This document shows positions 4,001 through 50,150 of a stretch of 50,984 nt of DNA, one piece after another. Both the position numbers and the translations under genes were made by a program. The stretch's first letter is position 1. Every line of letters begins with the position of its first letter. The notes under the pieces were generated by a model. It was not told where the DNA came from. It searched no databases and saw only the letters and a program-made list of their open reading frames with translations. The stretch is from a phage, in sequence record NC_100129.1; one strand, written 5' to 3'.

Positions 4001-4387
4001 ATGAAAGTTATCCGCAATTCCGACAACAAATTGATGAACGGTCGCTATAAAACTGTTTACACAAAAGTAGCTGGCAGCGACGACGTGATCGAGGTGGAGG
4101 AATTTCAGGTTAAGGCGCTGGCTAAGGGCGCGAAGTGGGAATCAGCCAACCAGGACGAATACCGCACTATCAAGGCAAAGACGATTCTATGTACGTTTGT
4201 TGATCACCGGATGGCAACCAAAAAAAGTTTTAAAGCTGGAAAGCGTTACCAGGTCGAACAGGGTCGCGTTCTTGGATCAGTTGCTGGTTACGTCTTCGAT
4301 GAGGACGGCGACCGATGGACGCTCTACCGCGAGGAGGTCGGATTCTCTGCTGGTTACTCTTATCTTTTTGAGGCCAAATATTCATGA
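4001..4387 (+). CDS. hypothetical protein (128 aa)
   Basis: ORF with GGAG RBS after motif 3925-3944. Confidence 0.5.
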   Translation: MKVIRNSDNKLMNGRYKTVYTKVAGSDDVIEVEEFQVKALAKGAKWESANQDEYRTIKAKTILCTFVDHRMATKKSFKAGKRYQVEQGRVLGSVAGYVFDEDGDRWTLYREEVGFSAGYSYLFEAKYS

Positions 4388-4672: not shown

Positions 4673-6256
4673 ATGAATTTTTCATTTGAAACAAGTCAGT
4701 TATCACCGAAACAAATCATTGAAACCGCCGAATCTCAAGGTATTTCCCCTGTTCGTGTATCCATTCAGGCCAACGGATACCGCCAATCGTCAAGCTATTG
4801 GGGACAGGTGGAAGATATTAACGGCGGTAACGACCGCTACCCTGTCATTTCACTTGGGAATGATGTTGATGTAGTTGGTAAGCTGGCGCGCAATCTTGCG
4901 AGATCTGTTCAATTCCCTGAATCATCGGCCTACATGCACTTTATCGGATGTATTTCTGCCGCTATGCTTGGTCGATTCACAGTTGACTACCACGGAACCG
5001 ATCAGCCGACCGCGCTTTACGTTGTGACAAGCCAGCCTCCGTCGGCAGGTAAATCCGCGATTAACAGTCTGGCTATTGCGCCTATGGTTGCAGAAGTTGA
5101 GCGCATCAACGAGCAACGCAAGAAGGAACGGAAAAAGATACAGGCAAAACTTGCCGGACTACTAAAGGAGATGAAAAGCGAACGCTCCGGCGCAGATATG
5201 GAGATTCTATATCAAGAAAAAGAAGATCTGGAAGAAAAACTAAGCAAACTTTGCGATGTTGTTTTCCCTGTCTCCGACACCACACCAGAGGGATTAGCAA
5301 AGATAAATAACAGACAAGGAAACTTCGCGGTTATTTCTGATGAAGCAACCAGTATTAACAGTCTGCTTGGCCTGACTTACGCGAATAGCGAGCGCAAAAC
5401 TAACAGCGAACTTGTGTTAAAAGCATGGGATCACGGCCATGTTTCTATCGCCCGTTCTAATGCAGACAATAACATGAGTTTTTTTGCGCTTGGATGTATG
5501 AGTGTTATCGCCCAGGATGAAACTATTAATGGCATCATGGATGCAGGATCTCGTGGCATCGGTGTAAGCGAGCGTTTTCTACTGGTGCGCGAACAGCCGT
5601 TAATCGGTACGCGTGTATTTGTTGATGAGAATGGTGATTCAACTTACGAACCAGTAGACGGTGAATTGAAAGCGCAATACTTTCAGTTGGTGCATAACAT
5701 TATGAGCGAAATTAACGTTTCTCTGAAAGTTAGCCGTTCTGCAATGCGCGTGCTGAACATTGCACGCCAGGATATGGAACCGCATCTTGCCGACGGCGGA
5801 AAGTTTTCGCATACGATGCTACGCGGTGCGCTGGGTAAAATGGATAAGCAGGTGATCCGCATTGCTGCCGTTCTGCATGTGATACGCAATTGGTTTAATC
5901 CTGCTGGATACCCGCAAAAGTCTAGAGAGATTGACGTTGACACGATGCAAGAAGCCTTGCTGATGTTCCATGAATTGAGCAAAACGTATATCAGCGCGGC
6001 GAACGCGTCCGGCTATGCTGGTGATGATGCCGAGATGTCAAAACTGATTGAGTTAATCACCCGCCACGGTAAGGCAAATAAAGGCGTATTGAATGTCCGC
6101 GCTTTGTATGAGGCAGCACGCAAGGTAAAACCTTTCCTGGGGCAAGCTGGCGTGATGAAGCGCATAGAATCGCAACTTCTTCCGATGCTTGAGCAAAAAA
6201 ACTACGTTTGTGTTATTAATGGTGTTATTTTTGTGAATCCTGTGTTAATGGGGTAA
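4673..6256 (+). CDS. putative P-loop NTPase, replication-associated (527 aa)
   Basis: Deviant Walker A SQPPSAGKS and Walker B-like AVISDEA; large early gene; family assignment uncertain. Confidence 0.45.
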   Translation: MNFSFETSQLSPKQIIETAESQGISPVRVSIQANGYRQSSSYWGQVEDINGGNDRYPVISLGNDVDVVGKLARNLARSVQFPESSAYMHFIGCISAAMLGRFTVDYHGTDQPTALYVVTSQPPSAGKSAINSLAIAPMVAEVERINEQRKKERKKIQAKLAGLLKEMKSERSGADMEILYQEKEDLEEKLSKLCDVVFPVSDTTPEGLAKINNRQGNFAVISDEATSINSLLGLTYANSERKTNSELVLKAWDHGHVSIARSNADNNMSFFALGCMSVIAQDETINGIMDAGSRGIGVSERFLLVREQPLIGTRVFVDENGDSTYEPVDGELKAQYFQLVHNIMSEINVSLKVSRSAMRVLNIARQDMEPHLADGGKFSHTMLRGALGKMDKQVIRIAAVLHVIRNWFNPAGYPQKSREIDVDTMQEALLMFHELSKTYISAANASGYAGDDAEMSKLIELITRHGKANKGVLNVRALYEAARKVKPFLGQAGVMKRIESQLLPMLEQKNYVCVINGVIFVNPVLMG

Positions 6257-6651
6257 TGATGTTCATTCTGGATCTCTACAGATGGTGTGAGTCTTACGAC
6301 TGGTTTACTCGTCAGCACATTGCAAAATTTATCTATCAGCACAGAGAATGTGAACGCCTGGCGAAGCAGGCCGGATTCACCCCGCGCATGTTCGCTTCCA
6401 TGCTATCGAAAGAGTTTTGCGCAAGAATGATGGGCGCTGGTTATCTGGATGGCGTTGAAGGTAGATTTTGGTGCATTGACGGATCTGCCCGTAGGCCGTT
6501 CGGATTCGAATTTTACACCTTTGAGGGAATGCAAAATGAATGGATAAGGGATATGGCACGGATAGGAGAAATGAGTGATGATGAACTCTTTGGAGCAAAG
6601 TCTAATAGACAAGATATTGAAATTTTGCGCCGTAAATTCAATATCACATGA
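6256..6651 (+). CDS. hypothetical protein (131 aa)
   Basis: ORF, ATG overlaps upstream stop (TAATGATG). Confidence 0.5.
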   Translation: MMFILDLYRWCESYDWFTRQHIAKFIYQHRECERLAKQAGFTPRMFASMLSKEFCARMMGAGYLDGVEGRFWCIDGSARRPFGFEFYTFEGMQNEWIRDMARIGEMSDDELFGAKSNRQDIEILRRKFNIT

Positions 6652-6844: not shown

Positions 6845-7063
6845 ATGAGCAACAAATTTTTTACCGTGGCGCTGATTATCAAACATGAAAACGGCACTAC
6901 CACTGAGATCCCTACAAAATTCCCAGCCGACTCCTGGACTAACGAGCAAGCTGTCGGATATGTTGAGGAAATGGCTAAACGCGTAATGGCTGGTCATTAT
7001 GATATTGAATTTCAGGAAAACCAGAAGCTAACAAATCATTCACACGAATGGACTGATGCTTAA
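6845..7063 (+). CDS. hypothetical protein (72 aa)
   Basis: Internal ATG with GAGGAAAA RBS after motif; followed by bidirectional terminator. Confidence 0.5.
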   Translation: MSNKFFTVALIIKHENGTTTEIPTKFPADSWTNEQAVGYVEEMAKRVMAGHYDIEFQENQKLTNHSHEWTDA

Positions 7064-7067
7064 AAAT

Positions 7068-7092
7068 AAAGGAGGCTTTAAGCCTCCTTTTT
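7068..7092. terminator. bidirectional rho-independent terminator
   Basis: Hairpin GGAGGCTTTAAGCCTCC flanked by A-run and T-run between convergent genes. Confidence 0.75.
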
Positions 7093-7464
7093 CTTTGTCC
7101 AGAAGTAGATAGCAAGCATTACGGCGAATGTGGCAAAACATACGATTATCGGGTCGTACCATCTGCCGTTATCACCCTGCACAACCTGGATTTTTTCCGC
7201 ATTGATGGTATTGGCCTGAATGGTTGATGCCTTAACCGTCTTCTTGCTTGATGTATCCACCTTTTCGACCTTCGATTCTTTAAAGGTGTTTTCCTGCTTG
7301 CTGCTGGAGTCTTTTTTTGCGGTAATACCAACGGCCTGCTTCACGTTCTCCGCGCCAGCCTGGGCGCTAATATCTGGCTTACTTCCGGTCAGTATGTCAA
7401 CTGGACTTATAGCAGAACAGCCGGACAATAAAACCGCCAGTGCAATAGCTGTGATTCGTTTCAT
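7078..7464 (-). CDS. unimolecular spanin (lipoprotein with C-terminal TM anchor)
   Basis: N-terminal signal plus lipobox LLSGC and C-terminal TM IIVCFATFAVMLAIYFW in one 128-aa protein; directly downstream of endolysin; this architecture is the T1 gp11-type u-spanin. Confidence 0.75.
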   Translation of the reverse strand: MKRITAIALAVLLSGCSAISPVDILTGSKPDISAQAGAENVKQAVGITAKKDSSSKQENTFKESKVEKVDTSSKKTVKASTIQANTINAEKIQVVQGDNGRWYDPIIVCFATFAVMLAIYFWTKKKEA

Positions 7465-7952
7465 TACAGATCCCTCATGCAGTATTTAAACTCAACCGCG
7501 CGACGGTTGCGTAAACCTTTAGAGCGTTCTTTCTTTCCGGTTTTAGGATTCGTGAATTTATCCCACCGCCATAACTGCTGGCACGCTTCCGGAAATCTGC
7601 CCTGATTAATCAGTTTAAGCATTGTCGAATTGCGGAATGCACCCACACCAGCGTTAAAAGTGAAACTATACATCGCCGCTCTCATCGTGGCTGGGATTTC
7701 AACCTTCACGCGCTTGTCTACTTCATCCTTCGCCACCTTGATATGTTTTGCCAGTAGCGCATCGCATTCGCGCTTTGTGTAGGTCTTGCCGATAATCACA
7801 TCTTTTCCGGTGATTCCGGCGCATACCGTCCAGACTCCGGCAATATCTTTATATGGCGTGTATCTGATCCCTTCGATTTCCTCAAGAAGTGGAGAAGTAA
7901 GAGCAAGCGCAGCGCCGATGGCGACGGCGACGACGCTATTTCTTGCGCTCAT
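7464..7952 (-). CDS. endolysin, lysozyme-like with N-terminal signal-anchor (SAR-type, inferred)
   Basis: 162 aa; N-terminal weakly hydrophobic Ala/Gly-rich segment; [26 protein letters not shown] resembles the catalytic Glu region of phage lysozymes; lies between holin and spanin. Confidence 0.7.
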
Positions 7953-8188
7953 TATTTACCCCTAATTTCAATTGCTTTTTTAAAGTCACCACTATCAAGC
8001 GCCTTCTGGAAGGCTTTACTATCACGCCACCGCAGATAAGCGCCCCACACGCCGAAAATAGCCATCAATACGAAGCTGGCAATTGCAATTGCAGTTTGTC
8101 CGGTTACTGCTCCAGTGATTGATGCGCCACCCGTGCCTGACGTTGCAGCGTTCAAAAAATCTTTCATTTTTAGATCCTCTTTATTCAA
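7952..8188 (-). CDS. holin (single TM, pinholin-like)
   Basis: 78 aa, one TM ([20 protein letters not shown]), charged C-terminus, first gene of lysis cassette. Confidence 0.6.
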
Positions 8189-8225: not shown

Positions 8226-8268
8226 GAAAAAATAAATAAAAAAAGGAGGCTTGTAAATTAAGCCTCCT
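8226..8268 (-). terminator. rho-independent terminator (minus strand)
   Basis: Hairpin AGGAGGCTT..AAGCCTCCT followed on minus strand by a long T-run; between phosphoesterase and holin genes. Confidence 0.65.
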
Positions 8269-8290
8269 TATAAGTTAATGTTTTATATGG

Positions 8291-8461
8291 TTATTCTACT
8301 GGTGAAAAAGTCAGGTAATAGCCGTGTAATGGTGCGATTATTGCGCTGCCTTGCCCGTCGCGGATCTCATACATGCCGCCAGGAATTGCTACCGCCGTGT
8401 AAATCAGGCCGACGGTATAAGGCAATTGCTTAGATGTGTTTCTGGTGCAACGTACTTTCAT
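8291..8461 (-). CDS. small hypothetical protein (56 aa)
   Basis: Manually read ORF; ATG directly abuts stop of upstream gene (TAAATG). Confidence 0.3.
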   Translation of the reverse strand: MKVRCTRNTSKQLPYTVGLIYTAVAIPGGMYEIRDGQGSAIIAPLHGYYLTFSPVE

Positions 8462-21073: not shown

Positions 21074-21343
21074 ATGAAAAAATTAATCGCAGTTATCGCC
21101 ACCGTAGCCGCTCTGACCGGATGCGCAGCGTCGCCTACTGGCAGCTTCAAAAAGATCGATTGCACGGCAAAATTTAACGTTAAAACATTCCCTGTTAACG
21201 GATTCCATGAAGTCAAAATTAATGCAGTACGCGAAAACAGATTCAGCCAAAAGCAATACAGGTTGAGCGTTGACAATAAAGAAGTTAAATTTATCAACCG
21301 CTGGCAAAATGAAAGTAAATTTATTGATTTGAGGTGTAATTAA
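21074..21343 (+). CDS. small outer-membrane lipoprotein, candidate Cor-like superinfection-exclusion protein
   Basis: Signal peptide plus lipobox LTGC; 89 aa; own upstream dyad motif; position next to J-like gene. Confidence 0.5.
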   Translation: MKKLIAVIATVAALTGCAASPTGSFKKIDCTAKFNVKTFPVNGFHEVKINAVRENRFSQKQYRLSVDNKEVKFINRWQNESKFIDLRCN

Positions 21344-49870: not shown

Positions 49871-49890
49871 GTTTTAACAAAAAGTGCTAT
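49871..49890 (-). promoter_or_regulatory. dyad motif copy (reverse orientation)
   Basis: Overlaps stop TAG of lipoprotein gene; hairpin, CATAAT, CCTCATCGAAACGAG leader, RBS follow. Confidence 0.6.
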
Positions 49891-50150
49891 TTCACGCTTG
49901 TTGTGTTCTGGTAGTGACTAACCGACTTACCTTCGTTAGTTGACCAGTTTGCGCTACCCTGGCAGTTGGTAAAGTACACGTATCGGCTATCGCTGAACCT
50001 GTACACATCGCAACCATCGACTGTAAATAGTTTTCTGACGTTGTAAGTATCGGCAGGGTTAGCCATTTGTGCATCGACGTAAGCACCATCACCATTACAT
50101 CCGGTCAGGAATGCTGTTGCCATAAAAACCGCCATTAATGCCTTATTCAT
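49887..50150 (-). CDS. small lipoprotein (87 aa)
   Basis: Signal peptide plus lipobox FLTGC; GAGGAG RBS; start overlaps upstream stop region. Confidence 0.5.
   Translation of the reverse strand: MNKALMAVFMATAFLTGCNGDGAYVDAQMANPADTYNVRKLFTVDGCDVYRFSDSRYVYFTNCQGSANWSTNEGKSVSHYQNTTSVK

Follow-up and report, generated by a model that had tools for sequence, protein, structure and literature searches.

The 50,984-nucleotide sequence NC_100129.1, analysed over its full length and referred to here as the window, is essentially the whole genome of a Warwickvirus-like (Drexlerviridae), T1-like phage, as judged by nucleotide comparison. On the minus strand, from position 7078 to 8167, three consecutive genes occupy about 1.1 kb in the order holin-endolysin-spanin. 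The first (7952-8167) encodes a 71-amino-acid holin that belongs to PHROG 2877 and is the orthologue of T1 gp13, the second (7464-7952) encodes a GH24 lysozyme of 162 amino acids (PF00959; orthologue of T1 gp12), and the third (7078-7464) encodes a lipoprotein of 128 amino acids with a C-terminal transmembrane domain (TMD), that is, a unimolecular spanin (u-spanin; PHROG 1804; orthologue of T1 gp11). An original prediction from this DNA had placed three open reading frames within 7078-8188, and all of them were confirmed on the minus strand. At both gene junctions, 7952 and 7464, stop and start codons overlap as TAATG, suggesting translational coupling. The identities of the genes, their orthology, their sequence signals and their synteny were established directly from the comparisons described below. 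Taken together they make it very likely that these genes constitute the late lysis module of a T1-like coliphage, which follows a pinholin, signal-anchor-release (SAR) endolysin and u-spanin route.

The closest relatives of the window are Escherichia phages. Both window halves are approximately 97-98% identical to MatMar, WaterSpirit, BabyEgg and BEBK14 over about 95% of their length, and WaterSpirit is classified in Drexlerviridae; Tempevirinae; Warwickvirus. Within the 2-kb cassette region the nucleotide identity to WaterSpirit, MatMar and BabyEgg rises to 99.2%, and BEBK14 is 99.5% identical over the 71% that it shares. The records of WaterSpirit (OR896833), MatMar (OR896829) and BabyEgg (PP925846) label the three genes holin, endolysin and Rz-like spanin, while that of BEBK14 (MN158214) annotates a lysin and a holin. 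The window and WaterSpirit proteins differ at two amino acids of the spanin and at one of the endolysin.

The same arrangement is found in T1 itself (NC_005833, 42878-43982), a member of the Tunavirinae, whereas the window belongs with Tempevirinae/Warwickvirus. Genes 13, 12 and 11 of T1 encode holin, endolysin and u-spanin in the order seen in the window, with abutting or overlapping junctions, and the products measure 71, 162 and 133 amino acids compared with 71, 162 and 128 here. The holin is 61% identical to gp13, the endolysin 66% identical to gp12 and the spanin 47% identical to gp11; the last is five amino acids shorter than its T1 counterpart and has diverged in its TMD and periplasmic sequences. 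The spanin lipobox, LSGC, is identical in both phages. Judged by sequence and gene order, the cassette is orthologous to T1 genes 13-12-11 with conserved synteny.

The assignment of the 128-amino-acid protein combines homology with architecture. PHROG 1804, "Rz-like spanin", matches it over its full length (E=1.2e-45), tblastn detects homologues in 1168 phage records, and the identity to T1 gp11 extends over 122/128 residues (E=3e-36). The family threshold used for T1 gp11 u-spanins is 40% identity over 40% of length (PMC6139136). At 28 members in 2018, T1gp11 was the largest of the u-spanin families, and T1 gene 11 complements the lysis defect of lambda RzRz1 (PMC6139136). By pattern match we identified the lipobox of the window protein with the lipidation residue at Cys16 and Ser17 at +2. 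Its C-terminal end contains an uncharged segment of 19 residues, P105-T123, with a Kyte-Doolittle value of 2.04, followed by KKKEA, and the 88 residues of the periplasmic stretch are polar, rich in Lys, Ser and Ala and free of Cys. For comparison we used eight distinct homologues, drawn from Tunavirinae, Tempevirinae, Braunvirinae, Rogunavirinae, Webervirus and two Autographiviridae genera, alongside the near-identical WaterSpirit protein. In all eight, the lipobox conforms to L[STG]GC and is followed by Ser or Ala at +2, the C-terminal end carries a TMD and a basic tail, and the periplasmic part is free of Cys. The motif AQxGAENxK and the position of the TMD are conserved among them, the TMD sequence is not. 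Thus the lipobox and C-terminal transmembrane helix that the original prediction had described are both present and conserved, and its call of a T1-type u-spanin is borne out by the identity to gp11 together with this architecture. We regard the assignment as solid, the function being read across from the characterised T1 gp11. A T1 gp11 localisation study in J Virol from 2018 is said to have found that products of internal starts down-regulate gp11 and that murein acts as a negative regulator.

The periplasmic stretch could reach approximately 29 nm at 0.33 nm per residue and approximately 13 nm as a helix, so the spanin would have to be largely extended to bridge the envelope. In a single-sequence AlphaFold 2 (AF2) model only the helix 105-127 is confident, with predicted local distance difference test (pLDDT) values of 71-87 in 10-residue blocks.

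Phage 21 and the prophage DLP12 rely on a two-component embedded spanin (RzpD/RzoD), whereas the window encodes a u-spanin. We looked for the parts of a two-component system both inside the spanin gene and elsewhere. An alternative-frame open reading frame of 61 amino acids within the gene (7146-7331) lacks a lipobox and is not retained by the homologues, which leaves no candidate for an embedded outer-membrane spanin. For separate inner- and outer-membrane spanins, a lipobox scan of the whole window returned only two distant lipoproteins; its filter was strict and thus conservative, as it dropped the u-spanin itself because of R3. The first of the two (21074-21343, plus strand) is a Cor-like lipoprotein of 89 amino acids with the lipobox LTGC and a match to phrog_1119 (E=1e-7), and is not a spanin. 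The second (49887-50150, minus strand) is a predicted lipoprotein of 87 amino acids with LTGC and Asn at +2 that matches only phrog_6360 and phrog_902, both of unknown function. With neither an embedded nor a distant candidate, the window contains no two-component spanin.

That the 128-amino-acid protein is itself a Cor-like superinfection-exclusion protein, or another lipoprotein that happens to lie beside lysis genes, is exceedingly improbable. It does match PHROG 1119 weakly (E=1.1e-4), over residues 1-56 only, which is the signal-peptide end, but the match to the spanin profile covers the full length and has an E-value some 40 orders of magnitude lower. The C-terminal TMD is conserved, the protein is orthologous to the experimentally tested T1 gp11, and a better, separate Cor candidate exists at 21074-21343.

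As evidenced by Pfam Phage_lysozyme PF00959 (E=1.5e-37) and an intact catalytic triad E-x8-D-x5-T (E27/D36/T42), the 162-amino-acid protein is a GH24 lysozyme. Its best matches in the PDB are 3HDE (E=3.9e-42), 4ZPU (E=3.5e-41) and 3HDF (E=1.7e-40). We take 3HDE, which carries only the database label "Lysozyme", to be the SAR endolysin R21 of phage 21; 4ZPU is RrrD of prophage DLP12, and 3HDF is a 140-residue form that lacks the N-terminus. The alignments to 3HDE and 4ZPU begin at residue 7, within the hydrophobic N-terminal segment, and within the catalytic domain 50% of the residues are identical to RrrD. With R21/RrrD, of which it is a genuine homologue, the endolysin shares the E-D-T triad and a Cys-free, Gly/Ala-rich SAR segment, although the linker from this segment to the catalytic Glu is six residues shorter here than in the phage 21/DLP12 endolysin.

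The N-terminal segment has the features expected of a domain that leaves the membrane again. After R4 follows an uncharged Ala/Gly/Val-rich stretch, N5-L23, with a hydrophobic core from S6 to L23, and 47% of the segment consists of Gly, Ala, Ser and Thr. We scored membrane insertion as a simple, approximate sum of per-residue costs. On this scale the lysozyme segment scores +4.0 over 19 residues, while the TMDs of the spanin and the holin come to +0.4 and -0.5, respectively. It is thus marginal for stable insertion, which is a hallmark of SAR domains. SAR endolysins of the R21 kind are activated by refolding, those of the P1 Lyz kind by disulphide isomerisation. The only Cys residues of the lysozyme, at 44, 63, 124 and 158, all align with Cys of 3HDE and the N-terminal segment has none, which places it with the R21 kind and not with the disulphide switch of P1 Lyz. 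The original prediction had proposed a SAR segment from hydrophobicity; the proposal is supported, now on the further basis of R21 homology running through the segment itself. We conclude that the enzyme is a predicted R21-type SAR endolysin, its behaviour being extrapolated from the characterised homologue.

The same N-terminus could in principle be a cleavable Sec signal peptide, releasing a soluble enzyme that is restrained in some other way. An n-region (R4), a core of 18 residues and the small residues A15-L16-A17 and T19-S20, which resemble a signal peptidase I site, would fit such a reading. However, the homology to R21 spans exactly this segment, and its richness in Ala, Gly, Ser and Thr and its marginal hydrophobicity are conserved in all homologues. 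Glu27 lies only four residues past the hydrophobic stretch, hence an enzyme cut there would retain hardly any structure at its N-terminus; in R21 the SAR segment, once released, is incorporated into the active fold. Moreover, a free periplasmic muramidase would cause early host lysis. A cleaved signal peptide is therefore very unlikely, and the SAR endolysin is retained.

For the holin the start codon had to be revised. The original prediction gave 78 amino acids, a length that results from mechanical extension of the open reading frame to TTG 8188, whereas the actual protein has 71 and starts at ATG 8167. The minus strand reads TTGAATAAAGAGGATCTAAAAATG and provides the Shine-Dalgarno sequence AAGAGGA 7 nucleotides upstream of ATG 8167. 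In the alignment to PHROG 2877 (holin; E=4.7e-34), residues 8-78 of the long form correspond to profile positions 1-71 of 71, and four of the five Drexlerviridae orthologues outside the near-identical relatives are 71 amino acids long (the fifth, from Mishu, has 74). The Shine-Dalgarno position, the profile alignment and the orthologue lengths together define the true holin as 7952-8167. TTG 8188 was rejected as a start: it has no Shine-Dalgarno sequence upstream, that of ATG 8167 falls within the extension, and profile and orthologues begin at the ATG. At the other end of the gene, WaterSpirit (~4253-4260, corresponding to window 7952-7960) has one extra G in a G-run, as a result of which its holin has 70 amino acids and the gene no longer overlaps that of the endolysin at a TAATG. 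The extra G is a homopolymer error of sequencing or else a genuine polymorphism. Unlike that of WaterSpirit, the window holin ends in the family-typical ...IRGK.

The holin contains an uncharged stretch of 42 residues, F4-L45, followed by a basic tail that is strongly conserved among the compared Drexlerviridae holins. TMD-grade hydrophobicity is restricted to residues ~25-45, where the insertion-cost sum is about -0.5 (-0.9 to 0). The first half of the stretch is rich in Gly, Ala, Ser and Thr and sums to about +7, and between the halves lies only TGQT. A GG-x4-G-x3-G pattern is kept in the compared Tunavirinae, Tempevirinae, Braunvirinae and Webervirus holins, though not in Rogue1, and would fit a packed, membrane-embedded helix. 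Pfam assigns the protein to no holin family and yields only a sub-threshold DUF3262 match, and NCBIfam offers no meaningful name for it, for the spanin or for the DUF7244 protein encoded upstream (see below).

How many times the holin crosses the membrane is contested. The note in the T1 RefSeq record (NC_005833) gives a single transmembrane domain, whereas PMC11447400 describes the T1 and TLS holins as class II pinholins with two TMDs. Class II pinholins of the S21 type are small, have both termini inside (N-in, C-in) and open nanometre-scale holes, which depolarise the membrane without letting proteins through. In EssD, a DLP12 homologue of the S21 pinholin, transmembrane segment 1 has a sum of +6.5 to +7.3; the first half of the holin here falls in this range, which makes a two-TMD, pinholin-like topology plausible. 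Of S21 itself it is known that the first transmembrane segment is a SAR-like TMD that inserts into the membrane and then exits. S21/EssD and the holin here are also of the same length, 71 amino acids, and similar in that a weakly hydrophobic segment precedes a strongly hydrophobic one. The earlier description of the holin as a single-TM protein is thus contestable: it captures the one firm TMD at ~25-45 and leaves out the weak first half that resembles TMD1 of EssD.

Combining the three proteins, we propose the following course of lysis. Before lysis, the holin would build up harmlessly in the inner membrane while Sec exports the lysozyme, whose weakly hydrophobic SAR segment would keep the enzyme inactive at the periplasmic face. 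The spanin precursor would be exported and lipidated at Cys16; with Ser at +2 its N-terminus would be sorted to the outer membrane, and the C-terminal helix would remain in the inner membrane. Being anchored in both membranes, a single chain would thread the peptidoglycan mesh. At a set time the holin would trigger and depolarise the membrane, upon which the SAR segment would exit the bilayer and the lysozyme refold to its active form, as in R21, and degrade the murein. Loss of murein would free the spanin to cluster and collapse, fusing or disrupting the inner and outer membranes and so releasing the virions.

Several results run counter to this scheme in its complete form. In the AF2 model the periplasmic part of the spanin has pLDDT values below 50 apart from a short helix at 35-44, and the model does not confirm beta content; for the family, PMC6139136 reports a periplasmic domain made of a short helix and then beta strands. 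A convincing cassette promoter did not emerge from a consensus scan, which gave 4 matches where 3.2 are expected by chance; the best match, TTGACA-18-AAAAAT, overlaps the start codon and is implausible, and no promoter is claimed. The remaining points concern the holin. BLASTP gives no alignment between it and EssD at E<=100, and no loop with charged residues joins its two putative membrane segments. The hole size and the topology of the holin, like the promoter and transcription start of the cassette, are inferred only, and both a two-TMD arrangement and a small size of its holes are putative. The holin here and S21/EssD differ accordingly in both sequence and the presence of a charged inter-TMD loop. 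Lacking similarity to EssD, the holin falls outside the S21 family, and "pinholin" can only be meant as a functional analogy.

That analogy draws on the genomic neighbourhood. A SAR endolysin as neighbour is a mark of pinholins, and the holin gene here overlaps the gene of the SAR-type lysozyme at the TAATG junction. T1-type holins are also termed pinholins, as a prediction, in PMC6139136 and PMC13164509. Nearly all T1gp11-family cassettes couple a pinholin with a SAR endolysin (PMC6139136), and the same pair is read in TLS and T1 (PMC11447400) and in KanT1 (PMC13164509). The passages of PMC6139136, PMC11447400 and PMC13164509 drawn on here contain no experimental report on the hole size of a T1 gp13-type holin. 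On balance, the holin probably acts as a pinholin in the sense of a reasonable functional analogy and not of family membership. The pinholin proposed in the original prediction therefore agrees with the literature predictions for T1-type cassettes, and it does so without a sequence link to S21/EssD.

The main competitor is a holin that is no pinholin at all, with a single TMD (N-out, C-in), forming a topological class of its own and producing large or other lesions, to which the SAR endolysin would respond as to any depolarisation. The restriction of TMD-grade hydrophobicity to ~25-45, with +7 for the N-terminal half, points this way, as do the single transmembrane domain in the T1 RefSeq note, the missing similarity to S21-type EssD, and a junction of just TGQT in place of a polar or charged loop. 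In addition, u-spanins are found beside both SAR and canonical endolysins (PMC6139136), which implies that SAR endolysins do not strictly need a pinholin. Set against this, the N-terminal half matches TMD1 of EssD in its weak hydrophobicity, a run of 42 uncharged residues would suffice for a hairpin, most of the compared holins retain the GG-x4-G-x3-G pattern (Rogue1 being the exception), and the published annotations for T1 and TLS are class II pinholin (PMC11447400, PMC6139136). We consider a non-pinholin unlikely, though far from negligible, and keep the pinholin analogy as the working interpretation. It is likewise rather doubtful that the PHROG 2877 holins constitute an uncharacterised class of their own, defined by a firm TMD plus a glycine-zipper-like segment without a loop, with the DUF7244 protein separately acting as a fourth lysis factor.

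The DUF7244 gene (8291-8461, minus strand) lies directly upstream of the holin gene and had been overlooked in the original prediction. It encodes a protein of 56 amino acids from the SH3 clan (PF23896, E=5.6e-28; 97 bits, cut-off 27) that is 49% identical to T1 ST14. According to PMC13164509 (2026), the family consists of standalone SH3-fold proteins encoded between the exonuclease and pinholin genes, occurs in 188/522 Drexlerviridae, mostly Tunavirinae, Braunvirinae and Rogunavirinae, and is a proposed auxiliary "shell" component of Drexlerviridae lysis modules. Here the gene is present in a Tempevirinae-type genome. Its ATG abuts the stop codon of the exonuclease gene (8461/8462), a hairpin at 8269-8243 separates it from the holin gene, as in the T1 layout, and no export signal was seen in the protein sequence. 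The exonuclease junction, the hairpin and the missing export signal suggest that DUF7244 belongs to the upstream transcription unit and is cytoplasmic. From its sequence, such a location would sit awkwardly with a cell-wall-binding role alongside the pinholin. We thus treat the gene as neighbouring context, its role in lysis being only proposed.

Hairpins delimit the cassette on both sides. The upstream one (8243-8269, minus strand) is terminator-like with a T-run, lies about 75 nucleotides upstream of the holin start and parts the cassette from the exonuclease and DUF7244 genes; the T1 hairpin between ST14 and ST13 occupies the same position with a different sequence. At the downstream end, a bidirectional hairpin resembling an intrinsic terminator on either strand (7068-7090; 10-bp stem with 5 G-C pairs) covers the last spanin codons and sits between the spanin gene and a converging plus-strand gene that ends at 7063. 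T1 has an equivalent at the 3' end of gene 11, both as an annotated feature and in our own hairpin search, and further ones are found in SU57 and Rogue1. Shared between T1 and the window are the terminator hairpin at the 3' end of the spanin gene, the DUF7244 gene and terminator-like hairpin on the upstream side, and a helicase operon converging from downstream; an HNH endonuclease gene, which in T1 lies between those for the exonuclease and DUF7244, has no counterpart here. The converging genes at 6845-7063 and 6256-6651, both on the plus strand, have matches solely among PHROGs without a known function (phrog_27210 and phrog_2794), and upstream of them lies a DNA helicase gene (4673-6256).

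Relatives of the cassette and of its spanin also occur further afield. About 20 unannotated GenBank records (MG065663-MG065687), named "Campylobacter phage A1xx" with C. jejuni as host, contain a T1-like cassette with 84-86% nucleotide identity, and the record of Campylobacter phage A113 encodes a u-spanin 62% identical to that of the window. By sequence these genomes look like Drexlerviridae coliphages, which makes the host label questionable. In the Autographiviridae, the u-spanins of Drulisvirus and Phimunavirus belong to the same family as that of the window (33-47% identity) and share the lipobox, AQxGAENxK and the C-terminal TMD. The order in Gaspode (Phimunavirus) and ZX11 (Drulisvirus), however, is spanin-holin-endolysin, with different holins and longer endolysins of ~200 amino acids. 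This occurrence suggests that the spanin gene may move independently between lysis cassettes.

Overall, the cassette is already known, being annotated in near-identical GenBank genomes and representing a textbook T1-type module. Useful beyond this is the corrected holin start, which sets the protein at 71 amino acids from ATG 8167. For the family, the analysis makes clear that the label "pinholin" across the Drexlerviridae is a prediction, applied to holins without a sequence link to the characterised S21. The compactness of the module, with three genes and a one-chain spanin in ~1.1 kb, makes it handy for engineered lysis, as has already been appreciated.

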